A program made the position numbers and the translations under genes. Below the pieces are notes generated by a model. It was not told where the DNA came from. It did no database searches and was given only the letters and a program-made list of their open reading frames with translations. A stretch of 64,000 nt of DNA, from contig JAWMAR010000082.1 in NCBI GenBank assembly GCA_036785375.1, forward strand, positions 2,604,001 through 2,668,000, in the 5' to 3' direction. The DNA is from Leucoraja ocellata (lineage: Eukaryota). Below are positions 2,724-61,021 of this stretch, one piece after another; the first letter of the stretch is position 1; each line of letters begins with the position of its first letter.

Positions 2724-2921
2724 GTGCAGGAAGGAACTGCAGATGCTGGTTTATACCAAAGACAGACACAAAATGCTGGAATAACAGCGGGTCGGGCAGC
2801 ATCTCTGGAGAAAAGGAATAGGTGACATTTTGGATCTGAAGAAGGGTTTTGAACCAAAACCTCACCTATTCCTTTTCTCCTATGCTGCCTGACCCACTGA
2901 GTTACTCCAGCATTTAGTGTC
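2724..2921. mobile_element. Fold-back Penelope-terminus-derived short element
   Basis: Inverted arms around CTGAAGAAGGG (2836). TSD TATGTT(C/T)ACTGAC at 2711-2723 and 2922-2934. Confidence 0.8.
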
Positions 2922-4159
2922 TATGTTTACTGACTTACTGTGTTCCCATATTTTTCTTTCTTTCTCGGTATTACCCACTGATCCAGCCTGGTTCGCTGTC
3001 CTCCTACAACAAGTGCAAGCAGGGAAGAGCAGCATGTTTTCTCCGCGAGAAGTCGAGTGACATATCTGTGAACTGAGGACTCCAGCAGAATTCAAAGATG
3101 CCATTTTATGTTCAGAACATTTCATGGCCCGTTTTATCTATAGTTGTCAACATATTGTTCTGTGGTTTAAAAACCAATTCGACGGATCACCTGTGATGGC
3201 AAACAGAGAGTCTACAGGGATCTAAAAGTCAGTTAAAAACAAGTATCCTACACAGAGCATGACCATGAAACGTACAAAGGCAGCGGAAGCGATACCCTTG
3301 CAGGTTTCAGCAGAAACTCTGCTCCAATGCATGTGAGAAGCTTATGGTTGGTTGTAACCACAGAACCACTTGCTGGGTTGGAAACTTCAAGTGATAATAA
3401 TCTAAACTGAGTTCTGTCAGCATCTTCTATCTCAGGGCAACATCCAGTATAAAATGTAAACAGCTGTGTTTTTGTTTTAGTTCTGCTCATGAACTTTCCC
3501 CACCAGTATCTTTCTCCTCTCCTGAATATGTTGACTCTTTGATTCATGAGTGTTGGCGATGCTATTGCAATTACAATCTGATCCTCTCGCCCCATAAGTT
3601 TTCCCTAATGATGTTTCCAGAAAGAGTTCGCTGACGTGTTTAAAAGCAGAATCTCTGGCCACTTTTTGCTTTGTTAAACTTAGATGTGCTGAAGACATTT
3701 TTATTGCCGGTAGCCCCACACTGGCTGAAGCAGATAGCTATGAATGATTCTAGTCTGCATAGCTCAACCAGACACCATCATTTTTCTGAGCCTTGGAAAT
3801 TGTGATTTCTGAAGCATGTTTTGCAAATAAATCACTAACTTCAGAAAATTGATCATTTCCATATTCTGAATGTTTAAACGCTAAGCTTGAGAATTGGACG
3901 TCCAATATTTTTTCAGAAGTTAATTGATGTTATAGTTTGTGTCCAGAAGAAGCCATGACATCTATTTACTACATGGACTTATGCAAATGATTCAAGGCTA
4001 AAGAATAATGGGAATTAAAATGCATTCAATCATATTTTGTCCAATGAATCCAATTATCTCAAGTGCAGAGAACCTATGCAAGCCAAATATTAGAAATTAG
4101 GAATAAAGCAGATTCATCGTCTCAATATTATTGTGGAAAATAAGAACTTGTGCTGTAGA

Positions 4160-4985
4160 AGGTAATAAAAGTTTGGCTGGTTAACAAAATGCCCCAAAGT
4201 TTGTTGCTGGGGCCTTAACCTGCTACAATTTATATAAATGACTTGCCCGAAGATACAACGCTAAATTTATCAATGACACTTTAAAGATAGAAAGGGAAAG
4301 AGGTTGGAAAGAGGACAGAGGATCTACAGAGGGATACTGATGGGGATGGGGAGAGAATCTGGCAAATGTAGGCAAATATGGAGGAAATATTTTGCAGGAA
4401 ATATAGGGACAAATGGTGAGAAATTGCAGAGGGATCCAGGTGTTTTAGTGCATGATTCACAAAGGCAATTATGAGGGCACAATAGTAAGTAGGAAAGCTA
4501 ACAGAATGCTCAGAAAGTTCATAGGGCATATCTGGAGCAGTGTGCATATTATTAATTTTATTTAAGAAAGGATGTTAATGCAATGGCAGAGGCTCAGAGG
4601 ATGTTTACTGGGCTAATACCTGGAATGGAGAGGCTGGGCACGTGAGGAAAGATGCATGCCTAGTCTGTCCAATATATTAATGTTTCAAACTGAAGGGTGC
4701 CCTGCTGAAAATACAGAAGGTCCTGAGGGGTCTTCACAAGATGGGCATAGAAAGGATGTGTCTTCTTGTGGGAAAATATAGGACGGCTTAAAAATAAAGA
4801 GCCACCGGTCTGCGACATGACGGACCACAAGTTTGTTTATCTCTCAGATGATTGTGAGTGTTTGGAATGTTCTTCTTCTTTGGGCAGTAGATCCCGAGCC
4901 TTTGGATATTATAAAAATAGAGGTGAATGAATACCTGATAGAAGGGGGATGAAATATTATGGTGGATAGACAGGAATGTGGATTT
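4160..4985 (+). mobile_element. Old degenerate CR1 LINE fragment
   Basis: TGCTGGGGCC...TTTATATAAATGACTTG, CAGAGGATGTTTACT...ATACCTGGAATG, TTCTCTCAGATGATTGTGAGTGTTTGGAAT motifs. Confidence 0.65.
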
Positions 4986-4999
4986 GTGGTTACAATGAG

Positions 5000-5172
5000 T
5001 GTGTAAGAAGGAACTGCAGATGCTGGTTTCAACCGAAGATAGACACAAAAAGCTGGAGTAACTCTGCGGGTCGGACAGCATCTCTGGAGAAAGGGAATAC
5101 ATTAGTTATTTTCCTTTTCTCCAGAGATACCGTCTGACCTGCTGAGTTACTCCAGCTTTTAGTGTCGATCTG
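5000..5172. mobile_element. Fold-back Penelope-terminus-derived short element (core deleted)
   Basis: Inverted arms AGACACAAAAAGCTGGAGTAACTC / GAGTTACTCCAGCTTTTAGTGTC. TTACAAT on both flanks. Confidence 0.75.
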
Positions 5173-8651: not shown

Positions 8652-8841
8652 TAGGTCTGAAATGGGGCAAAGGCATATGTGAACAGACTACCAGATTGCA
8701 AAAAAAAAATCAAATTACTGCAGATACTGGTCATCTAAAATATAAATAGACAGTGTTGGAAATTTGGCCACATCTGCAGAATGAGAAACATGGTTCATAT
8801 TTCAGGTCAAAGATCTTTCATCGCAGTTGGAAAAGAGAGAA

Positions 8842-8944
8842 TAGCCTAGTTTGAAGAAGGGGTCCAACCCAAAACGTCACCCATCCTTTTTCTCCAGAGA
8901 TGTTGCCTGACCTGCTGAGTTACTCCAGCACTTTGTGTCTATCT
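8842..8944 (+). mobile_element. Monomeric Penelope-terminus short element
   Basis: Perfect 15-bp TSD TTGGAAAAGAGAGAA at 8827-8841 and 8945-8959. Confidence 0.8.
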
Positions 8945-9039: not shown

Positions 9040-9510
9040 ACATAGACATAGAAACATAGAAACAGGAGTAGGCCATTCGGCCCTTCGAGCCAGCATTACC
9101 ATTCAATATGATCAAGGCTGATCATCCAAAATTAGTACCTCATTCCTGCTTTCTCCCCATATCCCATGATTCCGTTAGCCCAAAGAGCTATATCTAACTC
9201 TCTCATGAAAACATCCAGTGAATTGGCCTCCACTGCCTTCTGTGGCCGAGAATTCCACAGATTCACAACTCTCTGGGTGAAAAGGTGTTTCCTCATCTCA
9301 GTCCAAAATGGCCTACTCCTTTATTCTTACCCTGGTTCTGAACTCCCCCAACATCGGGAACATTTTTCCTGCATCTAGCTGTCCAATCCCTTAAGAATTT
9401 CATATGTTTCTATAAGATCCACCCTCTCATCTTTCTAAATTCCAGTGAATATAGTCGATCCATTCTTTCATCATGTCAGTCCCACCATCCCGGGAATTAA
9501 TCTGGTGAGA
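9040..9510 (-). mobile_element. CR1 LINE 3' fragment
   Basis: ACATAGAA repeats, GGCCATTCGGCCC hairpin, GAATTCCACAGATTCACAACTCTCTG. Confidence 0.88.
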
Positions 9511-9915: not shown

Positions 9916-12057
9916 ACTCTAATGGGCAAACTGCATGCAGAAAGCACTTAAAGTCAGGAGTGAACCTGGATCTCTGGCATGGGAAGGTTGTGGCTCTCAT
10001 ACAGTTCATGAGTTAATGGAAGTAGTAGAGAGCCAGTAAATGAACAAGAGCTACAAAATTAAGGTGGTTGGGCAGTGCTTCCATTTCATTTCTGGTTGCC
10101 CGGCATTACTCCAACCCTGACTTACTCTATCAGCAAAATTCCTCGTCCCTCTCCAACCCGCTTCCCCAACTTTTTCTGCACTAATTTGTTGTCCTTGTCC
10201 AAGCTCTAACAAAATACCTTTATGAGGTTAAGAGGAGATGGCAGAAGAATGGGGTTAGGGGATCAGCCATGATTGAATGGCGGAGTAGACTTGATGGGCC
10301 GAATGGCCTAATTCTGCTCCTATTATTTTTTACCTTATGATCTTTGAACAGATGCGAACTCTATTTCTCTTTCCATAGATGCTGCTTCACCTGCTAAGTG
10401 TTCCCAACATTTTCTGTATTTATACCATTTGATTACGCTTCTTGTCGTAATTTAAAGGCCGCAAAATCCTGATGGCTGTTACAAAGGCATTATTTGATTC
10501 CTTGCTCTGAAAACCAAATAAAACCCCCAGAGGGAATTCAACTTCCTGAAAAACAATCAAAAGATATTTATCTCAGTCTTAAACCTTTTTCGTTTGGCCA
10601 GATTAGGCTAGCTCACTTAGCTGGATACCATCAGTAGTCTCAGTGAATGGGTGAGTAGTAACAGCAAATAATAGCCCATGAGAATTGAGAAATAAAGATC
10701 TGATATAGCCAGCCTTACACTGGTAAACTCAAAAAGGTTGGTAAATAATTATGATCCTAAGAATAGCAAAACAGAGGCCTGGATCGTATCATTTTTCTCC
10801 CAATTTTAGATGTGATCAGTCTACAACAGTGGTTAAATAATAAGGGAAAATAGTTTGTACTTCAGGTTTTTTTTATTGGAAGTTGAGAACAGCCTATGTA
10901 AAACAGCAGGAAGTGATACAGTTTTGCTGAAGACACACTTTATAACAATCAGGTTTACTGATTACCGATTAAGAACACGTCTTCAGACTTCAAAAATGTC
11001 TTGCTTCAAGTTAAAAACCGTTACAAACATTCTGAAATGCAGTAGTGTTCTCCAATTCATTTCAGCAACTGTAGCCCATGTTTTCGCTGTATGTAAGCAG
11101 TCTTTTATACAGAATATGCACCCAGATTTGCTAGCATACATTTCATTGTTTAAAATGCCCAGACTTGCCACATATAACTGTGGCATTAACTGTGTAAGCT
11201 TTAGAAGTAAGGCAAATAGGTTACGCTGTGTGTTACATTATTGTTGTGCTACTAATGGTCTGAAAAATGCATTCAGCCACTGGATTTTGTGGCGGAATGA
11301 GTCATCATGTATTTGAAAGGATTTCATGATTTGCAAGGTATTAACGTAAAACACTTCTTTGTGCTCCCATCAGATTCCTTAGCACATGCAGGTAGTACTG
11401 TATAGGCGTAAATATTGCTTGGTCTACATTTAAAATAAAGGTTTAAAATACTTCCACAAGCTGCTTTTCCTGGAATTCCTGTTATTCCAGGGAACGCAAT
11501 ACCTCAAGAAAGTCACACTTACAAAAGTGCAAGCTCTCCACACCCTGCCTCATTCCTTCCACTTTTATTGTGTTCAGCCTTATCTGAAAACGAAAGCACT
11601 GGTTTTATCTTTAATATTCAATAAAACTAGTTTCCATTTAAGATGATCACAAAGGATGGGACTGGAGATAGTAAGTTAAATGTCAGTGATAGAAAATAAT
11701 CCTTGCAGTAAAAAACACGTTGGTCTTGTGTAGAACTATTTTAATATAAATTAACAATGGCGAGTGGGTTTTTAAAAATGTTCATAATACAAGTCCATAA
11801 TGGACACCCTGAGCCTACAGTAGACACAACCAGAAATGTGGATGTCCAAATGCAGTGATGCCAACTTTCCTGATTTTGGCAGGATATCTGGGCAATTCCC
11901 ATGAGTTGTACATTTTTAACGTGTACATTTATATGAGAACTCTTATTTGTAGCTCCAACTCAATATGATATTTTTGAATCATACTAATTGCATTAATACT
12001 CAATTAATACTCTGCTTCTCCTCTCTCCTTATTGTCATAAGCTGTCACCACCTCATG

Positions 12058-12340
12058 GAATAAAGGAAAGGCCATTTAAAACTGAGATGAGAAAACAATT
12101 TTCACCCAGAGAGTTGGGAATTTGTGGAATTCTCTGCCACAGAAGGCAGTGGAGGCCAATTCACTGGATGAATTAAAAAGATAGTTAGATACAGCTCTAG
12201 GGACTAGCGGAATCATGGGATATGGGGAGAAGGCTGGCACGGATTACTGATTGTTGATGATCAACCATGATCACAATGAATGGCGGTGCAGACTCGAGGG
12301 GCCGAATGGCCTCCTCCTGCACCTATTTTCTGTTTCTAGT
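12058..12340 (+). mobile_element. CR1 LINE 3' fragment inside the probable FAM53B 3' UTR (antisense)
   Basis: TTCACCCAGAGAGTTGGGAATTTGTGGAATTCTCTGCCACAG...GGGCCGAATGGCCTCCTCCTGCACC. Confidence 0.88.
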
Positions 12341-13293: not shown

Positions 13294-13647
13294 CTAGTTG
13301 TTTTCTATTTGCTCAATGTCCAATTCACCATCCAGCTGAAATACATCCTGTGCCACCTCCCCACTCCTCCACGAGTCTTTATCATTCTCGCCTCTCTCAC
13401 AGCTTTGCTTCCCAGTTCCAAACGCTTGCATTTCCTTGCTGCTGGTTTCCCCGTTGCTGGTGGAGGGCTTCTCTAAGTCGCCATGCTGCCGTGGTTCGGG
13501 ACTGCAGGTGGGGGTGGCGCCCGGCTGGGGGGAAGAGTCGTAAAGGCAAGGTGTCCACGTCTTTCCGTTACTTGCGTTGGGCTCCCACAGGCAGCTGTCA
13601 TTGCCGGGGCTGCCCGCAGAGTTGGGGCTGTGAAAGTTCCTGAGATT
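13294..13647 (-). CDS. FAM53B: FAM53B terminal coding exon (117 aa + stop)
   Basis: Pyrimidine tract and acceptor ttcctctttccag|AAT, phase 0, matching the donor at 59870. Ends ...DVFQLDGELDIEQIENN*, the FAM53 family C-terminal signature (human FAM53B LDGELDIEQIEKN). Confidence 0.93.
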   Translation of the reverse strand, partial: NLRNFHSPNSAGSPGNDSCLWEPNASNGKTWTPCLYDSSPQPGATPTCSPEPRQHGDLEKPSTSNGETSSKEMQAFGTGKQSCERGENDKDSWRSGEVAQDVFQLDGELDIEQIENN

Positions 13648-13739
13648 CTGGAAAGAGGAATCAGAGAACAGCGGGTGAAAAGATATTCCTTCACAGTACA
13701 AAGAGCATGTGGTAAACTGCCAGCTTTGCCAAAAGACAA

Positions 13740-14390
13740 GTGAACACTATTAACACTCAGTCCGCCTTGGCCTATTGCGATCTCCCGGTTGCCAAACTGA
13801 CCTTCCACATTCAGAGGGGGGCCCAAATGCAACTTGGAGGAACACCACCCATATTTTGCTTGGGCAGCTTACAACCTAGCAGTATGAATATTGAAGATAG
13901 ACACAAAACGCTGTAGTAACTCAGCGTGTCAGGCAGCATCTCTGGACATAAGGAATGGGTGACATTTCGGGTCGAGACTCTTCTTTAGAATATTGATTTC
14001 TCTAACTGCAAGTAACCCTTCATTTGCTCTCTCATCATACCTCCCCCACCCTAGTTTCACTGTCGTTCTGCTTAGTTTCACTGTTTCACTCATTAGTGAA
14101 ACTCGTTATCACTATCTCCACAGCCAACAATGGGCCATTGTGGGCCCCACCTTCCCTGATCATCATTGCTGGCTTTGATTTGTCCTTTTGCATACCTTTC
14201 ATTCATTTGTTTTCTCTACCTTTTCATATCTCCAGTTTCCCTCTCCCCTGGCTCTCAGTCTGAAGAAGGGTCTCGACCCAAGACGTCAGCCATTTCTTCT
14301 CTCCAGAGATGCTGCCTGACCCGCTGAGTTACTCCAGCATTTTGTGTTTATCTCCGGTGTAAACCAGCATCTGCAGTTCCTTCCTGCACT
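13740..14390 (+). mobile_element. Penelope-like element 3' fragment (GIY-YIG C-terminus + terminal repeat), interrupted by a short insert at 13895-13987
   Basis: Degenerate ...DLPVAK...QLGGTPP/LGSLQPSSMNIDFSN-type coding, then a pyrimidine-rich UTR and the CAGTCTGAAGAAGGGTCTCGACCC...CCAGCATCTGCAGTTCCTT terminus. Confidence 0.75.
13895..13987 (-). mobile_element. Monomeric Penelope-terminus short element nested in a Penelope fragment
   Basis: Perfect 9-bp TSD GAATATTGA at 13886-13894 and 13988-13996. Confidence 0.8.
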
Positions 14391-15034
14391 ATTATTACCA
14401 TTTTGGTTTAGTTTAAAATATTACTTTCACCTAAGCCTTCACCTTGAAATTGTTATTTATTCCTAGACTTGTGATGGGTGCCAGTTCTATAATATCACCA
14501 CAATCAGCCTTCTTCAAATTACAATGTCAGATCTCATCTAATGTTGCACACTACTGCATGCCATTAAAAGGCAGAACAGAAATATTCTGATAGGTATCAC
14601 CACACCTTTCAATAAATCTAAGACAATGTTAGGTTAATTTCACTGGAATGTGCATTTCAGGTTTTCTGTCAAATTGTTGGTGGATGTTGGATGAGGTATT
14701 TATTTCAGCAATAATGGTTGTTAACACAAACTTCCACTCGTTCCACTATTTAGGGGCTGCCCCAAGCTCCAAGTCATGGTTCCCACCTGGGCTCCCCAAA
14801 CCGTACAACCTCCTGACAGTGTAAATCCCCTCCAAACTACTTCCAAACCAACCAAATCATGGCCCCAGTCACAAAATTAAATATGAAAAATCAATCCAGA
14901 TCCGGCCAACCTTTGTTTCGTTCCAGGTAGGATGTTGCCTCACTGTTTCAGCATAATGTTATTGCAAACCACGTGGTTCTGCTTCATGTTTCCAGAATTA
15001 TAATAATCTATACAATTAATAATGTCATGAAATG

Positions 15035-15248
15035 AACTGCAGATGCTGGTTAATACCAAAGATAGACACAAAATGCTGGAGTAACTCAGCGGGTCAGGCA
15101 GCATCTTTGGAGAAAATGGCTAGGTCGTGTTTCGGGTCAAAACCCTTTTTCAGACAAAGGGTCCCAACCTGAAACATCACGTATCCATTTTCTCCAGAGA
15201 TGTGGCCTGACCTGCTGAGTTACTCCAGCGTTTTTGTATCTATCTTTG
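15035..15248. mobile_element. Fold-back Penelope-terminus short element
   Basis: Arms inverted around CCCTTTTTCAGAC|AAAGGGTCC (~15143-15165). AATGAAC on both flanks. Confidence 0.8.
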
Positions 15249-15857: not shown

Positions 15858-16176
15858 GGGCGGCATGGTGGTGCAGCGGTAGAATTGCTGCCTTACAGTG
15901 CCAGAGACCCGGGTTCGATCCAGACTATGGGTACTGTCTGTACAGAGGTTTGAACATTCTCCCTGTGACCACGTGAGTTTCCTCTGGGTGCTCCAGTTTC
16001 CTCCCACACTCCAAAGACGTAGAGGCTCGTAGGTTAATTGCCTTCGGTAAAAATTGTAAATTGTTCCTAGTGTGTAGGATATTCCTCGTGTACGGGGTGA
16101 TCGCTACTTGACACGGACTCAGTGTGGCGAAGTGCCTGTTTGCGCGCTGTATCTCTAGGTGAAGTCTAAAGCCTAA
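15858..16176 (+). mobile_element. V-SINE (HE1-like), full length
   Basis: tRNA-derived head with A box (TGGTGCAGCGG) and B box (GGTTCGATCC), V-domain (GTTTCCTCCCACACTCCAAAGAC), CR1-derived tail. Confidence 0.9.
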
Positions 16177-16675: not shown

Positions 16676-17784
16676 TAAAAGTCAGTCATGGTAATTTGCA
16701 CTAAGAATGCCAAGAAGCTGGGCATCAGACACCTGCTGGCAATCATACCTAGATCTGGGTTGGATCCCGAATAGCAACCCTCTCAACATTCAGCAGCAGT
16801 GTCATTCACTGATTAGGAGGCAGAGATCAGCCATGATTTAATGGCGGAGTAGACTCGACGGGCCGAATGGTCTAATACTACTCTTATAACTTGTGAACAG
16901 TCACCAGCACTGTCGCTCATGGGGTTTATGACTATCCTATCTTGGTGTTGCAGTCTTGCCCACTTCCCAGCTGTTTTTGTTATTCTCCAAAGATACAAAG
17001 CAAAAGAGCAGGAAGGAGTACAGCTCTTTGAGCAACAGTATATCTTGGAACAATGTTAGAATGATGTATGAATGCTGGGTGTTCCCACTTCCATTGTGCT
17101 TTATTGATCTGTCCAAACAAAAATCATAAGAGCTGAACACTGTGAGGAGACAAATGAACAGTTCTGGTCGGGGAGATCGAAAACACAATGTTAAATAGAA
17201 AGAGCAAAATTCTAAATCGGCCAAAATATTCTAAGAGTATCCGGAGAGGGAAAGAATATTGATGAATATGGACAGATTTATTTGATTGCAATACAAATGA
17301 ATGTGAAATTGTAAATATTGCTATGTACAGTTACAGTGTTTGGTGGACTATATGTATATGCAAAGTTTTTTTTTACTTCACAGATGAGCTTCATTCTGAG
17401 TGCTAGTACAGTTTGTTCTTGGCAAAAGATAATTCCAGCGACATTAATCTTGCTTTGGAATCAAATAGGTGAATGATTAATGCCGAGAAAATGATTGTTT
17501 GTCTCTCTCTCACACCTGAATACAACTTGCTTTACTGAATTATGTCGTGAGTGAGAACAACTTTGGGGGGGGGGGGGGTGGAAACAAAAAATTCCTTGCC
17601 TCTGTCTACCCTCAGTAGAAATTTCATCTGAGAGGCTCTCAGTTCAGCACAGACTCAAATCCCAGGCAAGAAGCCGCTGGATTAAAGCATGTGGCACCAC
17701 CTGTGAATATTAGTACAGTTGTTGCCTTTGAAATGCCGATAGTCTCCAATGACCAAAAGGAAGTTGTGACATTTATTTGTGGAT

Positions 17785-17965
17785 TTAGGAGAGAGTTGGA
17801 TGGAGCTCTGAGGGCTGGTGGAGTCGAGGGATATGGGGAGAGGGCAGGCACGGGTTTGTGGGTTTGATGATGTGGGACGATTAGCCATGATCATGATGAG
17901 TGGCGATGCTGGCTCGAGGGGCTGAATGGCCTCCTCCTGCACCTAGTTTCTATGTTTCTATGACA
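17785..17965 (+). mobile_element. CR1 LINE 3' tail
   Basis: GGATATGGGGAGAGGGCAGG...GGGGCTGAATGGCCTCCTCCTGCACC..TTCTATGTTTCTATG. Confidence 0.8.
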
Positions 17966-21103: not shown

Positions 21104-21208
21104 GTGTTTAGATTCTGAAGAAGGGTTTTGGCCCGAAACGTTGCCTATTTCCTTCGCTCCATAGATGCTGCTGCACCCGCTGAGTTTCTCCAGCTTTTTT
21201 GTGTAACC
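21104..21208 (+). mobile_element. Monomeric Penelope-terminus short element with intact hammerhead-like core
   Basis: CTGAAGAAGGGTTTTGGCCCGAAACGTTG at 21115. Perfect 14-bp TSD TTGGCGATACATCT at 21090-21103 and 21209-21222. Confidence 0.82.
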
Positions 21209-21419: not shown

Positions 21420-21770
21420 GTTCATGTGACAGGAGCAGAATTAGACCATTCGGCCCATCAAGTCTACTCAACCATTCAATCATGGCTGATCTATATTTCC
21501 CTCTTAACCCCACTCTCCTGCCCTACCCATAACCCCTGACACCCGTACTAATCAAGAATCTACCTGCAATGCCTTAAAAATATCCATTGACTTGGCCTCC
21601 ACAGCCTTCTGTGGCAAAGAATTCCACAGATTCACCACCCTCTGACTAAAGAAATTCCTCCTCATCTCTTTCCTAAAGGAACGTCCTTTAATTCTGAGGC
21701 TATGACCCCTGGTCCTCGACTCTCCCACCAATGGAAACACACTCTATCCAGGCCTTTCACTATTTGGTAA
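21420..21770 (-). mobile_element. CR1 LINE 3' fragment
   Basis: MFPLVGESRTRGHSLRIKGRSFRKEMRRNFFSQRVVNLWNSLP. Confidence 0.9.
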
Positions 21771-37415: not shown

Positions 37416-37560
37416 CCTGTGCATACAAGGTTACAGGGCAAGTGCTGAAAAATGGCATTAGTGTGGAAGGCTAAATAATGGTCAACATGGGAATGGTGAG
37501 TCAAAGGACTGTTTCAGTGGAGCGGTATTGATATTGTCACATAGCAAGTTCACTATTACA

Positions 37561-41114: not shown

Positions 41115-41260
41115 TTCTGGTTTGTAGGCTAATTGGCTTGTTAAAATTGTAAATTGTTCAGAGTGTTTGTAGGATAGTGTTAGTATGTCGGGATCTTGGT
41201 CGGTGCGGACTCGTTGGGCCAAAGGGCCTGTTTCCGCCCTGTATTTCTAAACTAAACTAA
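41115..41260 (+). mobile_element. V-SINE 3' half
   Basis: GTTTGTAGGCTAATTGGC...GGGCCTGTTTCCGCCCTGTATTTCTAAACTAAACTAAAC. Confidence 0.8.
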
Positions 41261-42829
41261 ACACAGCATTGCCAGGTAAGGGCCAGCACCAACACATAGT
41301 AGGACCATCTCCCTTTGGCATTCAATAGAATAACATCACCAAATCTCCCGCCCACCACTGAAATTCTGGGGGTGAGGTGGCGGAGTGGAATCATCACTGA
41401 TCAAAAGATTGACAGGGTCAGAAATAGAAACACTGTGGCTATAAGAGCAGGGCAAAGACCAGGTATTCCTAGGGATTTATCTGCTGATTACCAAAAGCAT
41501 TTCTGCTGTCTAGAGAGCGCAAATCAGTAGTGGGATGGAATAACCTTCTGGACGCAACTCCAACGCTTGACGTCATCCATTATAATAACAACCCATTCAA
41601 TCAGCACTGTATCCACCACCTTGAGCATTCACTCCCAGCTCACTGTGGTAGCAGCATGCACCGTCTACAAAATGCAGAGTACTGACTTATCAAAATATCT
41701 TATGTAGAATTTGGAAAACTTGACCCCTACCACAAGAAGAACAAGGTCAGCATGCACAAACCTCCATAATCGCAATCGCAAAGTTTATCACCAAGTCACA
41801 CAACATCCTGACCTCGAAACAAATTACCATGCGTCCATATCAATGGGCCACCATTTAGCGTGGTAGAGTTCTACGGCACAATAAGCAGCCTTTGGGCCCA
41901 ACGCACCGTGTTAACTAGGATGTCTTTCTGAGCTAGTCCCACTCGACAGCACTTGGCCCATAACACTGCCCTATCCATGAGCTTGTCTAAATGCCTTTTA
42001 AAAGTCATAATTATACCCAGATGCTGCCTACTCGCTGAGTTCCTCCAGCAGGTTGCTTTTTTTGCTCAAGATTCCAGCAACTGCAGTTTCATGTCTCTCC
42101 TATCGTTCATTGCTATGTGCAAGATGTAAATCATTACACCAAGTATGATTATTTTATTATTATTGGCAAGAATAAGATATGGTTCTTTCTCCATCAACAG
42201 TCATTAAAGAACATTCATTCTTTCAGGACCAAAAAAGAAAAAAAAAATCAGCTTTATCCATGTAAAGCTACGAAAATTCAGGATAAATGGCCTGGGTATT
42301 GGACAGCTACCTAACAAACAGCTTTAGTGCTCCAAACTGTGTTACATTCGAACAGGCCTTTCAAGAAAGTGGTCATTGGTTTCCATGAGTCATGGTCATA
42401 GAGTGAAGAAAATGATCCATTTGATGCAATAAAAATGCCCTGTTAATGAACCTTGCCTGTGATGGTAAAGTCAGTCATATTAGGTCACTATCACTGTGGC
42501 AATATGACTGTGGCTTTCTGCAGCAACTTGCAGCAATGATGTGTGAGAGACAGTAAAGAGCCCCACATTCTGACCCCGTCACTTGCTTTGTGGTTTCTGT
42601 TGAAAGGGGTTTGAGAAAAAAAAATCTGTGCTGTGGAATCATTAGAGTGCAAAACCTGGTCAGTACTCAACCGCGGACATTTACGAGAGCATTACAGCTG
42701 TAAATAAAGCAAGTAGCATATTCAAAGTCAAAGGCATGGTAAAGAGTTGGAGGAGGAAAGAAAACTATATATTAGACAATCTGGGAAATATATCCCTTTT
42801 GTTGTCAATTAATAGTCATAAACCCATGA

Positions 42830-43210: not shown

Positions 43211-43654
43211 TTAAATCCACAGATTTAAACAATCTATTTTTAGATTGTTCTAACAAGCCGTTCCAATGAAGGACATTATTTCTGAAAGCTTAACTGTTTC
43301 TCTTTCAATGTTATCTGACCAGCTGAATGTTTCAAGCATTTTCTGTCTTTATTTCAGATTTCCAGCCTATGCATTTTTTTTTAATTTTCATTATGCATGG
43401 ATTTTGTTTTCCCCCAAAGTTGTACAATTCACTTGATTGTCACTCTGCAAATGATAAAGGACACGGATAGATTACAAAATGCAGCAAAATTCATTTAAGG
43501 GAGACCTATCTTAAAACAAGCTGTAAAGTGACCTTCAGAATGTACTCCACCGCTGCCACTAAATGTTGTGACACTAAGAGCTGTCTAAAAAAGACATGAG
43601 GCCGAGGAAGGGGCTCACTGCCCACAAAACCCTACATTCAGTGGTCTTCACTCG

Positions 43655-43750
43655 TTTGAAGAAGGGTCTCGACCCAAAACATCACCCATTCCTTCTCTCC
43701 AGAGATGCTGCCTGTCCCGCTGTGTTACTCCAGTTTTTTGTGTCTATCTT
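43655..43750 (+). mobile_element. Monomeric Penelope-terminus short element
   Basis: TTGAAGAAGGGTCTCGACCCAAAACATCACC...GTGTCTATCT. ATTCAGTG on both flanks. Confidence 0.75.
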
Positions 43751-45397
43751 GTATTCAGTGAGGTGTGTATGTCAGGTGGTGCATGCCAGGATTGTTGCTT
43801 GTGTAGGAGGCACCATAGAGAGAACTTGTTTGATTAGTCACATCAACCCACAACAAAAACCCTATTACTACCATTAGGACTGGTCACACCTCAATATCTA
43901 CAGTCACCACATTCATGACAAATGCCATTGTGCTCCAGTTACTTGTTCGAAATTATGGAGTACATTGGCCCTCAGGAAACTTGAAACATTTAAAATTTAT
44001 AACTTGTTTACTGCTTTGAGCAGATGTTGCTGGCAACCAGGAGCCTTGACAGAATCTGGATTAGAGATGTTCCAGTTAGGAAAAGTTGGCAATGGTCACT
44101 GGTTTTAAATCCTATTATCTTTGACCATAAAACCAAGCTCAGCCATAAAATGCACCTGGAAGATACAAATTTTCCTGCACGCAGTATGTTGGAAGTGAAT
44201 CGCAGGATAAGTTTCTCATCCTCAACTTCACATGCCTATATGTCTCTTTAATTTTTATACAAATTAATCCGCTTGCTACTTTGTTTGTAGTACCTATGGT
44301 GTCTCGTTGTTCCCCAACCCCACTCCCAGGTCAAGATCAGGAAATTATTTTTGTCTTAGAATCCAGCTAAACACTTTGTAAAATACCTTGAATAATAAGA
44401 AATTCCTGGCAATTAATCACCTTTAAACCTAAACATTGCCCTTTACCACCTCATTCTCAGCAGCCAATGGCACAAGAAGAGTGAAGGTTTCAATTATTAC
44501 TACAAATGATGACCAAACTGAATCTTGCAGGTAAATGTCAGCAGCTTCATGCTATTTATCCCCCTCAATGCAAGCAAGTTCAGGATTCATGCTTACTTAC
44601 TTACATCCGCGTGTGGAATCCCGAACTTGCTGACAGATTGCCGCTGGGTGAATTCTGCCTTATGCTCTGACACCAGTCTCCACATGAAGGCAGAACACAA
44701 ACTTGATGCGAGTCCCCTACACTTAGACTGGGAATCTGTTTAAGGATCCTGTGCCAGGATTTATCCGAGACCCCATTCATTGCCGTGGCGATGTTACAAC
44801 TGTATGGAACATGACAGACTATAACGCATGTTATCTATTATTTTTTATCTCAGTAGTATTGCCTTGATTATTTTGGCATTCTTAATCTTACTAATAATTT
44901 TCTAGTTAAAATTATTTAGCTCATTATTTAACAGATTTTGAAAGCATCCCAGAAGCTTTGCAGATTTGACAGATGGCTGATCAGCGGGGGGTGAGCATAG
45001 CAATCTGTCAAATTTTCCCCAGCAGTCAGTGGGTGGGCTTGCTCCGAGCCAACCATGTGACCCTGTTATGGCCTTTGACCTTGTTGATTAGGTCCAGGTT
45101 GCCCTCCACCAGCAAGTTCATCCTTATGGATGTGAACCAAATAAGTTCGGAGCGACGGGGAATCTGAGTGATGAACAGGGATCAGACCTTGTTTAGTGCG
45201 TTGGGTTAATATGGAACTAATCGTCATTTACTTACATCACACTTTTGACATTCTATTACTTGTCAACAAAAAACAAACAAAAAAAGACAAGAAAATTCTG
45301 CATTCTGAAGGATCTCTCATCAATAAAATCTTCTACAAGGATTTTATTTTTGTAAATTTGAATGCTGGCAATAGTTGATCCCGTTGGTCTTCAATAA

Positions 45398-45483
45398 TAG
45401 ACACAGAATGCTGGAGTAACTCAGCGGGACAGGCAGTATCTCTGGAGAAAAGGAATGGGTGACGTTTTGGGTCGAGACCCTTT
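45398..45483 (-). mobile_element. Monomeric Penelope-terminus short element
   Basis: Reverse copy. TTCAATAA at 45390-97 and 45484-91. Confidence 0.75.
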
Positions 45484-46027
45484 TTCAATAAGATTTATAT
45501 CCACATAATTCAGCATTATTGAAACAATTCTGTTCATATCCCTCATCCGAGTGCCAAGATTATTTGGAGATCCATTGTTGCAAACCACATTGGTAAATCA
45601 CTGTTCCAATGATAACAACGTCTGTTTATATTTAACATCTATGCGTTGGCCACAATTTTCATCTGATCACTATGTAAGCAACAACAAGCTTCATAACAAA
45701 TGTACTTCCCCAGTCTACACATGTACAGGCAGTTTTCATTTTAAACGCTTAAACGTTCTGCTTGATTTGGATTAAACAGTGACCATTATCCACCATTATC
45801 TACTAAATGCCACAGTTTCCTTCACTATTTTGCCTCCTAATCCTGTACCTCTTCAGTATTCACTTTTGTATTGTACCATCACTTCTTTTGTTTAACCCCT
45901 CCTGCATTGCATCCTTTTACATACTGTACCTTCCTCTTTGTTTTATCCCCCATTTCCTTTGCAGCAAAACATTTTTGTTCCATCATTAACTTTTTCTAGT
46001 TCTAATGGAAAGTTATTGAACTGAAAT

Positions 46028-46178
46028 GTTTAGTTTAGTTTAGTTTTAGTTTAGAGGTACAGTGCGGAAACAGGCCCTTCGGCCCCGACCAGCGATCCCC
46101 GCATATTAACACTATTCTACACCCACTAGGGACAATTTTTATATTTACCAAGCCAATTAACCTACAAACGTACATCTT
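46028..46178 (-). mobile_element. V-SINE 3' half
   Basis: (GTTTA)n tail, GGAAACAGGCCCTTCGGCCC, CCAATTAACCTACAAAC. Confidence 0.82.
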
Positions 46179-52400: not shown

Positions 52401-53269
52401 AGAAATCATGTTTAACATTTAGTAACATATATGAAAGTTTCTGCAATGACATTTCATGACATTTTAATGTAACTGCTATCTTATTTTTTAATATATTGCA
52501 TGTTTAATCAACATTATATTTGTGTGTCAAATGAATTACTGAGAGAAGGCACATTGGCCACTGGGATTATTGCCAAACATGGTGACAGATCAAGGATGAT
52601 ATGATTTTTGTAGTGATCCAAGAATCACATTATAATTGAAGTTATAAAAACAAGGCAAATCATGGCAACATAACATGCACATTAATAAAATTAGGTAATA
52701 AAAATGTGGAATCCAAGTAAATTATCTAGATTTATTAGCTTCAAATTAATTAAATGCCATTATTTTACTTTGGATATATAGATTATATATTACTATTAGT
52801 TTAGTTCCTATTCATTTATTTTTGGTATCAATTAGTTATAGTTTAACATAAATGTAATATGACCAAGAATATACAAATTAAATCATATCTGTAAAGTGTT
52901 TTTCAAATAGATAACCACTGTGACAATGTGATACAGAAAACAAACATCCTTGAGTTGACGACCTTTTTTTTTTAAAGCTTGTGTCCACTGACCATATCCC
53001 TAACCAGAAGTTACAGTATTAACTTTGGTCCTTGAGGGATCTCCAAAACCCACAGGTTTTTGTTCCAATCAGTAAATAATTGCTTCTGATAAAATCCATT
53101 TGTTTGCACTCTCACTGAAGTCTGGAGTGTGTATGAACTAGTGCATTTAGCAATAGGGTGTTTGCATTGCGCACATCAAAATTAACTATCATGTGCTAGT
53201 TTGATTGAAAACGTGGATTGCAAAATATCACCATAGACCAAAGCAGAGTCTGGCTTAAAAATTGAATAG

Positions 53270-54390
53270 GATGGAACTGCAGGTGCTAGTTTACACCGAA
53301 GATAGACACAAAATGCTGGAGTAACTCAGTGGGGACAGGCAGCATCAAAGATCTTAGAGCAGAGCAAGATAGGCCACTCCTGCGAAATACAATGGGCTGA
53401 TGTGTAGTATGCTACGGAGGGGATCCTGGGCATTTTTCACTGCCCATTTTAATAACCAGAGCCTACCTGACCCGACCCGACTCACAGTGTAATCAATGTT
53501 GCGGGGCAACAGTTTCTGTGTGTGATATGGGGTTAGATTCATAATTCTGTCAGTTCATACTTCTTGTCAAGAATACAATTTGACTCTGGTAATTGACTTT
53601 TTTAATGTTTTTTAAATCATTTCTTTTTAAATGGCTCACAAGCAATGTTTGAGTTGATTTTGTAGTAACCGGAACCGACCCGACTCGCAGGGTAATTGAC
53701 ATTGCGGGGAAAGTTTTTGTGTGTGATATAGGGTTAGATTCATAATTCTGTTAGTTCATAATTCTGTTAATTCTTGTTAAAGAATAAAATGTTTATAAAC
53801 ACACATACATGAATGTGATATAAATGTATATAATCATATAACACACAATTATATTTCTTCTGATCCAATGATGAACTTTATTTCAGACTAGACAAGGGAC
53901 ATTAAATAAGAAACATTGTAAACCTCCCCGCAACTTCACACACACTAGGCCTTATCCCCACCCCTCAACTCTCCCCCCCCCCCGGCACTCCCTCGCCTGC
54001 CCCCACACTACAATGTCTCCCCCCCTCCTATGCCCCTCTCCCCGCTACCCCGGGCCGCACACTCCCTCATCCCCGCTGCCCCATGCCCCACACTGCCTCT
54101 CCCCGAGCCGCGCACCCCCTCTCCCGCTTCCCCGGGCCCCACACTCCCTCTGTTGCTAAAATGGGTCCTATAATCACCCATGAATCTGCCCATGAGCGTA
54201 CTACGCGTTTGCGTGAGAGTAACCCATCTTGCTCTGCTCTAAGATCTTTGGGCATCATCTCTGGATAGAAGGCTGAGACTCTTCTTCTAAGGGTCTTGAC
54301 CCAAAACATCACCCATTCCTTCTGTCCAGGTATACTGCCTATCCCGCTGAGTAACTGTATCTTATGGGTTAAAAATGAGTTGTCTATCTT
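53270..54390. mobile_element. Fold-back Penelope-terminus element split by a DNA transposon
   Basis: Left arm 53272-53345 continues at 54259. TGGCTTAAAAATT at 53251-63 and 54392-404. Confidence 0.7.
53346..54250. mobile_element. Non-autonomous TIR DNA transposon (hAT- or P-type)
   Basis: Perfect 25-bp TIR CAAAGATCTTAGAGCAGAGCAAGAT (53346-70 / 54226-50). 8-bp TSD GGCAGCAT / GGCATCAT. Internal direct repeat (~53468-53555 vs ~53675-53760) and a C-rich tract. No ORF. Confidence 0.88.
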
Positions 54391-55989
54391 ATGGCTTAAA
54401 AATTAATTTGTGCAACACAAAGGAAAATGGTGTTGTGCAACACCAACCAATTTTAATCACAGTTCTTAGAGGGTTAAAGGCAGTAGTTAATGTTATGATT
54501 TTTTTGATGGAAAACACCTAGTGTGTCTAGCATGTTTTCTGATGACTGGCTTACCCAAACAACATCAACACTTGTCCAAAACCCAGAACTAGTTTCTTGC
54601 CTGTTTGTTAACCACATTGGTCTAAATGATGGTATTGTTCACTAAAGAAGAACCAGTTCTTTGTAATGCTGGAGGCTAAAACTAATTAGTATCAAAGGTT
54701 TCAGGCGCATCTCTCCTGCAGTTGATAGTAGAGCTGCCAAAGAAGGTTCAAATGGGCTGACACAGTCCACAAATAGGATCCCAGTCACCCCAGCCACCGT
54801 CAGCAGATTTCCGCTCAAAAGCAAGCACCCGGAAAAAATGCCAGAACAAAAAGAAAATCCAGCAAAAAGTCACGATAGTCTGATTTTCATCTGGACAGAA
54901 ATATGGTAAACATTGGAGAAAGATATCTGACAAAAAAACTCAGAAGGATGTTGCCAAATTGGTGCCTGTCAGAGCACAAGAGTCTCTGTAAATGCCCTGC
55001 ACTTTGTGGAGTCCTACACTCCAGCATTATAAAGTCACATTCACCAAAGAGATGGTTTTCCATTTATCTAGTATTTCTTGACTTCCCTAATTCAGCGGGG
55101 AACAAAGTGCCAGATCTGGAATTTCTCAGCAGAGACACTGTAAAGACCACAGGGCAAGGTTTCTGAAATAAGGGTGACTTTCAGTTCAAGAATAGTGAAG
55201 GCATGGGTTTAATAGACATTTGTGGTCTGCTAACTATTGCATGAAAGAGGTATGCGGAAACCAACTGCTTAAATGTCACATGGGGAAGCTTGCTGGTGTA
55301 GTTTGGAGCTGACACAAATGAATTTCATGATTTCTCCTTAAAACTTAAAAAGAAAATTGCTTCAGACAGCACCCGAGGTCGGGATTGAACCCAGGGCTTT
55401 GGGACTGTGAGGCAGTGGCTCTCGCAGCTTGAGCACTCTGCTGACAGTCTCCTCCGCTCCAAAGAAAGTTTAAAGAAATCTCTCCCCATAACCAATATCG
55501 TCCTCTACATATACCAAAATCTACCAAATGTCATTTATCGCTTCCTTTGTCAATTGTCTCATCTTTTGAGTTACTCTTTGTCATTTCCATTTGTAATTTC
55601 ACCTTTTATAATTTGGTTCCAACAACAAACGCACACATCACTATGACATTCAAAGCACTCAGACCCTTGCTCCAGCCACATGCTGAGACCCAGGCTCAGT
55701 CACACAGCAGCACATGTGATCTACGTCCTTACTGAGGTCAAGTCTGAGCAACACAACGTCACGAGACCTCGCCCTTCCTGAAATTCAGTCTCAGAGACAC
55801 GCAGCATCGTGTGCGTGGCTCAAACTTGCACTGCGGACCCTTGCTCTTTGAAGCTGTCATTGCTTTTGGTTTCCCCTCTAGTCTCTTACCCTTCTAGATC
55901 TTCAGTCTGATACAAACAGACTCAATTTTTCAACTTGCTCTGAATTTGTAACAACCTGGTATTTTGTCTTATTTAACATTTCTTATTTC

Positions 55990-56560
55990 CTAGCATTTAT
56001 TTCAAGAATACAAAAACAGGGATGCAATGCCGAGGCTCTATGAGGCGCTGGTCAGGCTGCATTTGGAGTATTGTGAATAATTTTGGGCACCATATCTGAG
56101 GAAGGATGTGCTGGCTCTGGAAAGGGTCCAGAGGAGGTTTACAAGAAAGATCCCAGGAATGAGTGGGTTAACATATGATGAATGTTTGATGTCACTGGGC
56201 CTGCATTCTGACCCTAGAAGAATGAGGGGGGACCTCATTACAATGTACAGAATAGTGAAATACTTGGATAGAGTGGATGTGAAGAGGATGGTTCCACTAG
56301 TGGGAGAGTCTAGGGCTAGAGGTCATACTCAGAATTATAGGACGTTCCTTTAGGAACGCGATGAGAAGGAATTTAGTCAGTGGTGAATCTGTGGAATGGA
56401 TATTTTTAAAGCAGAGATAGATAAGATTCCTGATTAGCATGGGTGTCAGGGGTTATGGGGAAATGGCAGAAGAATGGGGTTAGGAGGAAGAGATGGATCA
56501 GCCATGAATGAATGGCAGAGTAGACTTAATGGGCCAAATGGCCTAATTCTGGTCCTATTA
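55990..56560 (+). mobile_element. CR1-clade LINE 3' fragment
   Basis: LYEALVRLHLEYC...LERVQRRFTRKIPGMSGLTY, then the GGGCCAAATGGCCTAATTCTG tail. Confidence 0.9.
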
Positions 56561-57269
56561 CATGACCGTATGCTAGCTTTGTCATTAGAATTGCTAAAGA
56601 GGGCAGGGTGCTGTTGTTTAGTGAACTGACTTCCACCTTGCAAAGACTTCCAGTCTGACATTTCCTGCTACCCTCTCTTGGATTATGGGCCTTCCACTGA
56701 ACATCAAGCCACCATTTCCCAGAGTTCCATGACCTCATCCCACTTTCTTCCCACGTACGTCCTTCCTTTAATCGATTAACCGGATTGTGCTGTGGAACAC
56801 TTGTCTCAGCCTGTTCCTGAGCAAGAACAGAAGAGGTTGGGTGTGCCGTCTCTTGCAGATGATGAAGTCACACAGAGTTCAGAAGGGTATATCGTGCCCA
56901 GTGGAAGATGGGCTGCCTTACAGAAATCATGCAAGTGGTGAAGGACAGAGAAGTAAGTGCAGCTAGGAATGAGACAGGGAATTAAAGTGGTAGGGTATTA
57001 GTAACCCAAAGCCATGATGTAAACTGCAGCAAGTTGCAGGCAGTACTACTTTTGAAAACCTTTAATTCTTCATTGATTTAGAGCACCTACTTTCAGAAAT
57101 GTTCAATGAATATTACAAATCAGTCCCACGCAAAGATGTGCTCAAACATTCTCAACCTGTGGGTCCCCAAAACATCATGTATTCGGTCGTAGACTCATTA
57201 TCATGCAGTAAGATCTAAGATGTTTACGTAGATATTTAAAAAATGCAGGCAATTGTTCAAAAATATTAG

Positions 57270-58829: not shown

Positions 58830-59192
58830 AATCTCTCCTGCCTGGTTTGCAATTTGTTTAGGTTGGATTTTAGAAACTGGATTTACAAACACCCCGGTGA
58901 TATACGGGGCCGTGCATCGCCCGACGGGGCCTAAAATGGTCGTGGGACTTACCATCGCCAGCCTGGGGCTTCAACATCGGGCTTCAACATCAGGAGAAAA
59001 ATCGAGAGCAGGGGAGAGAAAATACTTTGCCTTCCATCACAGTGAGGAGGAGGTTCACTGTGATGGATGTTTGTGTGAATTGGTTGTGTGTCTAGTAGGG
59101 ATCATTTTTGTTTGTATGGCTGTAGAAATTTTCGTTTTGAGTTTCGTTTGAGCCTCACTGAGGTTCACTTGACAATAAATATTGTATTGTAC
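58830..59192 (+). mobile_element. Related non-autonomous retroposon
   Basis: GCCTTCCATCACAGTGAGGA block, GCTTCAACATC repeats, TGACAATAAA(TATTG)n tail. Confidence 0.55.
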
Positions 59193-59869
59193 AGAACTTC
59201 TGACGAGTTGAACTGCAAAGAAGCCCCAAAGCTGAATTAAAGAATTAGAACTGCAGCATGAAAGGATTGATGGTGAAGAGAGGGAAACAATATTTGCAAT
59301 TCTGATTGGGCGCAAAGTGAAGGGCCTTGTTTTAGGAGGGCACATGCACTCCCACAACAAAGGAGTCAGGCAATCTGTACAGTGTTTAAGGGTTAAAACA
59401 AATCTGTTCATGGCAGAATAAAATGTTGCTGCATATAATTTTAAATCAGCTCTGAATGAAAGGGCTGAAATGTTGCAAGTTATTAATATTTTTGGAACAG
59501 TTTTTCTTTCAATTCCATTCCAGTCCTACACCGGCACTCAAACAAGAATGTTAATCCCTGCACGGTTTCTCTTCAATCAGCTTTTACAGTCCTGTCAAAA
59601 TGTAATTGTGCACACAGATGAATGACAATCCCTGGGAAATGTAAAGTAATCTTATCAAAAGGTTGAGTAATTTCTGCATCTGTCTTACATGTTGCAAAAT
59701 TTAAATACACAAGTCACTCCTAATGTGCTTATGTTAATGGAGATCTGTGGCACCTACATCGTTGTAGGTTATAATTCAAAAATACTGCAATTTGTTTCAC
59801 ATCCATTTTGGGATGGCAGGGGAGGATTTGGAAATGAGTGTCAGCCTAAGCCTACAGTCCATCACATAC

Positions 59870-60654
59870 CTGAGTCATCTTGGCAAGGTCAAGGGACGGC
59901 CTTTGTTCTTCCGGGCGCCGACGCTTCATCCCAACTTTCTGATCGTTGTGGACGCACGGCTGGGACCTGCATCGGAGTAGGCGGCTGGCCTGCTGCGCGT
60001 GGTCTGAGACTGGGGCAGTTGCTGCATTAGTGGACGGCTTGCCGTGCTCCAGCACAGATATCTGCTCGTGAGACGCGGAAAGGGGCCGCAGCAGATCGAC
60101 CCTGGATGCCACGCCCAAACTGGAATCGGGGTGCAAGTCATCCTCAAGCCTTCCACAAGCGGGCGGGGTCCAGAAGCCCTGACCCCGAGGGCACGCTGAT
60201 CTCTTGCTGGTTGCCAAGGGTTCCCATGGAAAAGATAAGACGTTGGATCTTGAAGGCAGACTAAAACTGGAACTCCTCTGCATTGTAGACACCCCGTTCG
60301 AAAAATGTTGCACGCTGCTCCCACTGTGGCAGCGCCGTTTGTCTACTGGAGTCCACACCTTTGACCCACTAGGTTTCCAGGGGGATCGACAGCTGGAGAG
60401 CTCATCTGAAAATGAGAGCGACCTGCACTGCCGCTTGCTGGGAGGTGCCGATGGGTTGCTGTTACAGTCACTGAGGCTGAGGTCTTTGATCAAACTGGTC
60501 ACAGCAGACGTTGTACTTGCATCACTTGGCCAGACTGCATTCTCCTGATACTCATCTGAGCCAGTCAAACAAGTCCAAGGTGGATCCAGATTACTGGTAG
60601 TTTGCTCAAGGTCAATTTGACACTTCCTGTTGAGGTCTTTCCACCGATCACCCT
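59870..60654 (-). CDS. FAM53B: FAM53B large penultimate coding exon (785 bp)
   Basis: Translates (E)GDRWKDLNRKCQIDLEQ...SAVTSLIKDLSLSDCNSNPSAPPSKRQCRSLSFSDELSSCRSPWKPSGSKVWTPVDKRRCHSG...RSQPCVHNDQKVGMKRRRPEEQRPSLDLAKMTQ, matching the FAM53B motifs I recall. Donor CAG|GTATGT at 59870/59869 (phase 0). Acceptor aaaaag|AG at 60655/60654 (phase 1), with an in-frame TAA just upstream. Confidence 0.95.
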
Positions 60655-60899
60655 CTTTTTATTCCAAACAAACAAAACAAAAAGGTTTCATTAGACACTA
60701 CCCAAGATTCCACTGTATGGATTAGTTCTTAAGGAAAGAAACATTATAAATGGATTGGTATATCATCATTTCTATCTACTGTCTAAATAAAAGTTATGGC
60801 CATCAAATGTCCCAACCAAATAGGGGATGTGGCTTGTGGGAGCACAGGTGGAAAGATACACAGGTCAAACAATGTAGCAGTCAAAATGTAATTTAAAAA

Positions 60900-61021
60900 A
60901 GGAACTGCAGATGCTAGTTTATATGAAAGATAGACACAAAATGTTGGAGTAACTCAGGGGGTCAGGCAGAATCTCTGGAGAAAATGGATAGGTGACATTT
61001 CGTGCTGGGATCTTCTTCGGA
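60900..61021 (-). mobile_element. Monomeric Penelope-terminus short element
   Basis: AGGAACTGCAGATGCT...AGACACAAAATGTTGGAGTAACTCAG...TCTTCTTCGGA. Confidence 0.75.

Follow-up and report, generated by a model that had tools for sequence, protein, structure and literature searches.

Results and discussion

A short, dense repeat family occupies a 64-kb stretch of the Leucoraja ocellata genome (assembly GCA_036785375.1, contig JAWMAR010000082.1, positions 2,604,001–2,668,000; hereafter the window). The family is real, well supported and of a known kind, being a member of the pseudo-long terminal repeat (pseudo-LTR) termini of Penelope-like elements (PLEs) that carry a minimal hammerhead motif. Its copies display two fixed 3′ ends, one tail per head-to-head pair, AT-rich target site duplications (TSDs) of 8–15 bp, a fixed 5′ boundary and neutral decay. 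On balance, we lean towards reading the short units as dead-on-arrival insertions of the terminal ~95–135 nt of an endonuclease-positive (EN+) Penelope pseudo-LTR, made by the protein of autonomous elements from their own RNA and with a 5′ boundary set by run-off. Signed positions count from the C of CTGAAGA (+1, window position 14260 in the long copy); all others are window positions.

Census of the repeat family and its target site duplications

An nhmmer profile was built from 20 arms of the repeat and run on the window, with the reversed window as a control. It returned 33 rows, 28 of them with E<1e-3, compared with a single row (E=0.97) in the control. The 28 arms make up 20 insertion loci (~0.31 loci per kb), matching the original prediction of about 20 copies, and the matches span ~3000 bases, or 4.7 % of the window. 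Short loci outnumber long loci 17:3. Five weak rows (8717, 35640, 46230, 48921 and 54251) were excluded from every end count.

TSDs were scored at 19 loci, comprising 18 of the 20 (the two long remnants were omitted) and the weak row at 35640. The score was at least 8 at 10 of these, a borderline 7 (p=0.05) at three, and six returned none; among 400 random site pairs, four reached 8 and none reached 9. Lengths vary from 8 to 15 bp, and the duplicated bases are 69 % AT, compared with 58 % for the window. All five TSDs named in the original prediction are present (15, 9, 14, 12 and 15 bp, the last with one mismatch), and five further ones score at least 8 (2711/2922, 27016/27212, 43636/43753, 45390/45484 and 53251/54365). 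The copies within those five TSDs had been described as stand-alone; the duplications hold, but two of the five copies are not plain monomers, as 38824–39002 has an inverted arm and 21104–21208 has ~9 nt of an inverted tail.

Two 3′ ends and head-to-head pairs

The 3′ ends of the 28 arms are bimodal: 15 fall at +88 to +99, 12 at +117 to +130 and none at +100 to +116, with one end internal. The two end points (~+94 and ~+130) lie ~36 nt apart, and we refer to the stretch between them (+95 to +130; 14354–14389 on the plus strand of the long copy) as the tail. The unit had been quoted as ending ~36 nt before the second 3′ end, and its extent needs to be corrected. A predicted 8-bp helix pairs +48..+55 with +106..+113 (14307–14372, plus strand) and requires the tail, so that short-ended copies have lost it; 93.5 % of its cells are paired, with no compensatory change.

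Head-to-head pairs occur at 8 of the 20 loci. Seven of the eight combine one tail with one short end, and the eighth combines a tail with an internal end. The tail state is mixed in all informative cases, at 8/8 when a vestige at 21104 is counted (p=0.008) and 7/7 without it (p=0.016). The minus arm has the tail at 2724–2921 (+130 to +16, with a plus arm from −1 to ~+90; TSD 2711–2723/2922–2934, 13 bp, one mismatch), at 5001–5171 (plus arm with the short end, both arms starting at ~+28 to +33; TSD uncertain, 7 bp, p=0.05) and at 15031–15248 (−2 to +123, with a plus arm from +7 to ~+96). The same holds at 53264–54391, where the plus arm runs from +7, the TSD begins at 53251 and a 905-bp element (53346–54250) splits the copy. 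At 40493–40763, a minus arm from +130 to ~+60 faces a plus arm from −108 to +94. The plus arm has the tail and the minus arm the short end in the diverged copies at 27028–27211 (TSD 27016–27027/27212–27223, 12 bp, one mismatch) and 32644–32786 (plus arm from −5). In the subfamily B copy at 38824–39002, both arms extend to −5/−6 and the plus arm has the tail (TSD 38809–38823/39003–39017, 15 bp, one mismatch). The vestige belongs to a subfamily B copy at 21104–21208, in which the ~9 nt of inverted tail precede a plus arm from −1 to ~+92 with an intact core (TSD 21090–21103/21209–21222, 14 bp).

The inverted arms retain their outer end and have lost their inner end, a loss that is very uneven at 21104 and 40493. 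Microhomology between the TSD and the continuation of the element amounts to 3–6 nt at the short ends at 2922, 8945 and 40764 and to 0–2 nt at six others examined. The pairs at 38869 and 32678, which are independent insertions, have a near-identical head-to-head junction, at which a single A separates two arms that each extend to −5.

PLE insertions are described as having an inverted 5′ copy and a tail of 30–40 bp on one end (10.1101/2021.04.23.441226), and in vitro experiments with the PLE protein of Anolis showed cutting and extension of both target strands, with starts at two internal sites that bound the tail (PMC11167929). Our assignment to Penelope rests on this insertion anatomy and on the hammerhead motif, because the open reading frame (ORF) searches confirmed nothing.

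A sharp 5′ boundary

The furthest 5′ point falls at −6 to +9 in 14 of the 20 loci, at +10 to +55 in three (two of them near the predicted cut site) and upstream of −6 in the remaining three, consistent with the earlier remark that many monomers start right at the core. Under a best-case geometric model of truncation, the chance of 14/20 is P=3e-10 to 3e-8, with the −6 to +9 window picked post hoc, and P remains at most 3e-6 when the two least certain loci are dropped. The caveat that the copies could be extreme 5′ truncations thus fails for random truncation, as the 5′ ends are not randomly spread. Fragments planted with a start no later than +50 were recovered in 35–39 of 40 cases, so detection is not limiting, and this together with the truncation model indicates that the boundary is real.

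The boundary lies ~28 nt upstream of the predicted cut site. In the long copy it is represented by a pyrimidine tract followed by CAG, with overlapping TCAGT and TCAG-T-CTGA mini-palindrome (14232–14259, plus strand), and this is the 5′ boundary of most short copies. The same bases can equally be read as an initiator (TCAGT), as a splice acceptor and as a 4+4 palindrome (TCAG-T-CTGA). Drosophila Penelope is reported to have an internal promoter with an initiator (PMC2377424). Splicing was considered as the cause of the boundary and rejected, as an upstream exon common to the copies was seen in none of them. The case for a further 5′ cluster, at the cut site, has two poorly resolved loci behind it. 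Separately, a GT resembling a splice donor lies at the ORF stop and a CAG resembling an acceptor directly precedes the core (14010–14258 and 37604–37708), suggesting a pseudo-LTR intron; its removal by splicing would not make helix I any longer.

The single-armed copies are found on both strands. On the plus strand, 8842–8944 runs from −3 to +94 after six unexplained 5′ bases (TSD 8827–8841/8945–8959, 15 bp), 35013–35104 from ~+3 to +9 to +92 (TSD 35001–35012/35105–35116, 12 bp) and 43644–43752 from −2 to +94 after 10 extra 5′ bases that may be an inverted mini-arm (TSD 43636–43643/43753–43760, 8 bp); at 35392–35489 (−1 to ~+97), an adjacent TSD was looked for and not found. On the minus strand, 45397–45487 runs from ~+2 to +92 (TSD 45390–45397/45484–45491, 8 bp, overlapping the 5′ end), and 60897–61021 runs from −1 to +123, thus including the tail, and yielded no TSD when one was looked for. 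A further minus-strand arm, 13895–13987 (~−1/+1 to +94; TSD 13886–13894/13988–13996, 9 bp), is nested within the ORF end of an older, long copy, which fits PLE insertion into its own kind. Two plus-strand fragments belong to an older subfamily, namely 10358–10420 (start ~+29, short end; TSD looked for and not found) and 42019–42090 (+49 to tail). An older, diverged minus-strand copy consisting of core and tail (8717–8826), a weak match (E=0.026) outside the 20 loci, lies head-to-head with the younger copy at 8842–8944.

The hammerhead motif and the decay of the copies

The majority state of each alignment column (CUGANGA-H, a helix II starting with G-C, GAAAN, a palindromic helix III and NUH) fits the PLE minimal hammerhead, for which the published consensus comprises a U-rich leader, CUGANGA+H, a G-C at the base of helix II, GAAAN, a palindromic 15.2/16.2 and NUH (PMC4209133). 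An example on the plus strand at 37708–37739 has a 2-bp helix I, CUGAAGA+A, a 4-bp helix II with a tetraloop, GAAA and the palindromic ACGU, with the cut predicted after 37737. A descriptor search returned three intact sites, all in subfamily B, compared with a mean of 0.075 in 40 controls. The proposal of a minimal (type I) hammerhead motif at a Penelope pseudo-LTR end, inserted by retrotransposition with TSDs of variable length, is therefore upheld, and one doubt attached to it can be lifted: the "extra A" is the base between 9 and 10.1, a conserved feature of the minimal hammerheads of Penelope. Helices I of 2 bp have also been published (PMC4209133). Helix I here is weak (G-C plus U-A or U-G), whereas the 2-bp cases from Drosophila and Culex have C-G pairs (PMC4209133); 94 % of its cells are paired, with one-sided changes only.

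Fourteen arms span the core, five of them without a core mismatch, and in three of these five, helix II and the ACGU palindrome are preserved as well. At non-CpG cells, divergence is the same in the core (23/178) and in the +29 to +90 flank (176/1408; p=0.90), covariation within the motif does not rise above the shuffle level, and the hammerhead dimer fold lies 16–28 kcal/mol above the best dimer fold in silico in all four copies tested; taken together, these results show that the copies decay neutrally. CpG columns have changed more than others. The original prediction had named in advance a lack of excess core conservation over the flanks as grounds for refutation, and that excess is absent; this is expected of dead copies and has no bearing on the motif of the parent.

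Folding z-scores were non-significant for all six stretches examined, and RNAalifold gave compensatory pairs in 0/14. Rfam gave six matches with E<1, all far under the gathering score, four of them microRNA models on palindromes and none a hammerhead model; no tRNA or 5S head was visible at that score, and a scan of bacterial and archaeal genomes gave no matches. In the decayed copy at 8717–8826, helix II apparently begins with an A-U pair, which may be a compensatory change. The minimal motifs published so far are weak (PMC4209133), the Anolis motif is protein-dependent, and hammerhead mutants leave insertion in vitro unchanged (PMC11167929). The hammerhead would seem to be a passenger. In the parent it might at most act as a weak ribozyme that depends on dimerisation and on protein, and it probably plays no role in setting the ends of the copies.

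Subfamilies and long remnants

At least two subfamilies (A and B) are present in addition to older copies. In a tree of 18 arms, a clade with 100/99 support unites one long copy with two short ones, and subfamily B joins short with long copies; the view of the short units as an independent parasite of Penelope finds no support. With this number of arms, short lineages could still have been born several times independently.

The long remnants both lie on the plus strand. The subfamily A remnant (13690–14389) comprises a decayed ORF end (stop near 14013), a 3′ untranslated region (UTR) of ~245 nt, the core at 14260 and the tail to +130, and the subfamily B remnant (37540–37835) comprises an ORF end near 37605, a 3′ UTR of ~105 nt, an intact core and the tail. 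The window contains no full-length copy, in which a partial tandem would place two direct pseudo-LTRs around an ORF. The short, decayed ORF ends of the two remnants, upstream of 14260 and 37710, are alike (local score 38, compared with a mean of 22, a 95th percentile of 30 and a maximum of 39 among 300 null pieces). We take them to be the C-terminus of a PLE GIY-YIG protein, an identification that no search confirmed. The original prediction that the unit ends two Penelope GIY-YIG remnants therefore stands for the core and tail, which do end both, and lacks confirmation by any tool for the GIY-YIG identity. Two phmmer matches of the ORF ends, to bacterial-type repeat-domain proteins, were dropped as chance.

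Within the unit itself, an ATG frame (38925–39002 and 37760–37834) continues without a stop across most of the subfamily B tail but is interrupted by a stop in subfamily A, and the subfamilies differ by an in-frame 3-nt indel within it. Searches with this frame gave nothing usable, and a start of the parent ORF within the unit is a guess.

Mechanism and rival explanations

If the short units are by-products of Penelope integration, as we lean towards, a Penelope protein, probably a dimer, would nick the target with a stagger, and each target strand would serve as the primer for reverse transcription at one of two sites within the RNA. Both cDNAs would stop independently and then be joined head-to-head, and a cDNA that aborted at once would leave a "monomer". 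Most cDNAs would end at −6 to +9 because the template ended there, with the transcript 5′ end located at the initiator-like TCAGT of the upstream pseudo-LTR; the short copies would then be run-off products comparable to retroviral strong-stop DNA, and priming in the downstream pseudo-LTR would give the rarer long remnants. Run-off at the transcript 5′ end is our preferred candidate for the cause of the boundary. A genomic record of two-site dual priming with strong-stop-like run-off is part of the best explanation. We are doubtful of a bolder variant, in which the family would be a self-propagating, RNA polymerase II initiator-driven "Penelope SINE" (short interspersed nuclear element) of skates, with maybe several hundred thousand copies, a dimeric protein, two mutually exclusive RNA sites and a helix III that pairs templates rather than cutting.

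Several points weigh against the by-product reading with run-off. All data come from one 64-kb window, part of the 5′ positions and junctions were read by eye, and 9/15 inner branches of the tree are unresolved. The putative initiator is a motif match alone, its bases fit a splice acceptor and a mini-palindrome as well, and the ends at −5/−6 fall 2–3 nt upstream of the expected initiator A. In D. virilis, the Penelope start site precedes the hammerhead by ~120 nt and lies ahead of an intron, and the motif lies just after that intron (PMC4209133, PMC2377424), an arrangement that the acceptor-like bases would also suggest here. At the short ends, element and target have 0–6 nt of microhomology in common, whereas a non-homologous start site is described for Anolis, and later loss of palindrome centres by deletion could imitate the missing inner ends. 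Finally, the parent ORF, searched through its decayed end, gave no Pfam match (one stop-free frame and six frames read with X), no homologue at E<=10 and no Atlas match.

The main rival, which we consider rather unlikely, shares the by-product origin and explains the boundary by snap-back: the cDNA would fold on TCAG-T-CTGA and copy itself into an inverted arm, with later centre deletions producing monomers and uneven arms. The boundary does coincide with the 4+4 palindrome, through which two copies pair in computed dimer folds, and self-priming at junction palindromes has been proposed for rotifer PLEs (PMC3846280). However, a perfect centre at −1 occurs in 0/8 two-armed loci, the copies at 38824 and 32644 have a common junction with both arms to −5, and the junction at 40493 lies at −108/+60. 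In 6/8 pairs, the two sister arms resemble each other more closely than other arms do on average, but the resemblance is weak (a share of 0.07–0.97 of the other arms is just as alike), and sister-arm identity does not separate fold-back from two templates. Snap-back also predicts loss of the outer end in the second arm, whereas outer ends are the part kept; separate target priming thus fits better, and the pattern favours dual priming at the two in vitro start sites over the self-priming model. Even less probable, in our view, is a self-propagating, SINE-like non-autonomous lineage with its own initiator, mobilised in trans by Penelope protein. The defined 5′ boundary, the excess of short loci and the very high density would all suit it, rotifer pseudo-LTR sequences suffice for trans-mobilisation (PMC3846280), and non-autonomous pseudo-LTR derivatives have been reported (10.64898/2026.07.22.740005; Chlamys, 10.1101/2021.04.23.441226). 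Yet a single change of the long/short label, and with it a single short-copy lineage, is allowed by 0 % of 200 bootstrap trees, though shuffled labels need as many changes. The core is not under selection, short-ended copies lose the +48/+113 helix, and the Anolis minimal RNA runs ~55 nt past the priming region (PMC11167929), a stretch absent here, insofar as the comparison carries across clades.

Ordinary random 5′ truncation of full-length Penelope is very improbable. PLE insertions are known to be heavily 5′-truncated (10.1101/2021.04.23.441226) and 6/20 loci start outside the cluster, but the truncation model cannot accommodate the other 14 at any of the P values given above, with detection not limiting. 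We give still less credence to a non-LTR retrozyme, in which the hammerhead would excise the unit for circularisation and reinsertion. The motif fits a type I minimal hammerhead with three intact sites, and retrozymes are present in one chondrichthyan genome. Against this, a head-to-tail tandem of the unit was looked for and none was found in the window, permuted copies were not seen, starts lie near the predicted cut (+28/+29) in 2/20 loci, the required dimer fold is unfavourable in 4/4 copies and covariation does not exceed shuffles. With no tandems, ends away from the cut and no extra conservation of the core, the retrozyme interpretation in the original prediction is not sustained.

Comparison with known systems

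The family resembles the pseudo-LTRs of EN+ PLEs (Penelope/Poseidon, Neptune and Nematis) in its two 3′ ends ~36 nt apart with the tail on one end, its head-to-head inverted copy, its short, variable TSDs and its insertion into its own kind. From the start of helix II to the long end is a distance of 121 nt, compared with 111–118 nt for the Anolis priming loop (PMC11167929). Unlike in EN+ PLEs, most skate insertions consist of the last 95–135 nt alone, with a sharp common 5′ boundary and ~0.3 loci per kb; no reverse transcriptase of the family was recovered, and its clade is not assignable. Like metazoan PLE minimal hammerheads, the motif fits the consensus, and in the published cases these are mostly solo and genome-wide (PMC4209133). 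Non-LTR retrozymes are likewise non-coding, with a type I hammerhead, kinship to PLE pseudo-LTRs and occasional solo monomers (PMC7229834; 10.64898/2026.07.22.740005), but they are defined by head-to-tail tandems that give linear and circular monomers, whereas the skate pairs are head-to-head, form no tandems and have ends that ignore the cut site. By the tandem and cut-site criteria, the family is not a retrozyme. SINEs, including the hammerhead SINE-like repeats of Schistosoma, are also short, high-copy and TSD-flanked and use an enzyme from another element; in contrast, a separate lineage is not shown here, there is no tandem source and the unit is in its entirety the terminus of the parent itself.

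Solo minimal hammerheads associated with truncated PLEs have been published in their thousands (PMC4209133), and a 2026 preprint treats retrozymes as pseudo-LTR derivatives (10.64898/2026.07.22.740005). Element type, ribozyme motif and abundance of solo motifs are thus already known, while the density and the sharply defined start are unusual. A chondrichthyan row is absent from the Fig. S3 alignment of PMC4209133, shark and skate terms were not found in the supplement file searched, and the main text of the little skate genome paper mentions neither Penelope nor SINE. The accessible literature held no description of the skate family, the sharp 5′ boundary or PLE dual priming; the family may be catalogued in Repbase, Dfam or subscription papers, which lay outside the search. 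The skate copies are a large natural sample of Penelope integration products, and with their pattern (one tail per insertion, outer ends kept, sharp 5′ boundary) the mechanism of integration can be tested by counting across the genome and with an existing in vitro assay. Extrapolated from 0.31 loci per kb and 4.7 % coverage, the family would account for a few percent of the 2.2-Gb genome if this window is typical.

Genomic setting and other elements

The minus-strand ORF at 59855–60658 is FAM53, with 99 % identity to the Leucoraja erinacea FAM53B cluster and 93 % to Rhinoraja. The last two FAM53B coding exons (59870–60655 and 13297–13650, minus strand) enclose an intron of ~46 kb that contains most copies, so that the majority are intronic. 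The subfamily A long remnant starts ~40 nt from the acceptor of the last exon.

The 905-bp element at 53346–54250 has 34-nt terminal inverted repeats, an 8-bp target duplication (one mismatch) and internal direct repeats; from the length of its target duplication, it is presumably hAT-like. The remnant of a long interspersed nuclear element (LINE) at 22328–24700 matches a reverse transcriptase domain (RVT_1, E=2e-22), and we assume it to be RTE-like. Related LINE 3′ fragments, which we take to be CR1-like, occur at 9043–9503, 12058–12338, 17780–17962, 21422–21764, 33386–34014 and 56251–56565. A second dispersed repeat family, SINE-like in size (130–290 nt), is represented at 2428–2635, 15868–16157, 34100–34389, 39159–39340, 41114–41262 and 46038–46169, and a tandem repeat at 26491–26670 has a period of 73 nt and 2.4 copies.

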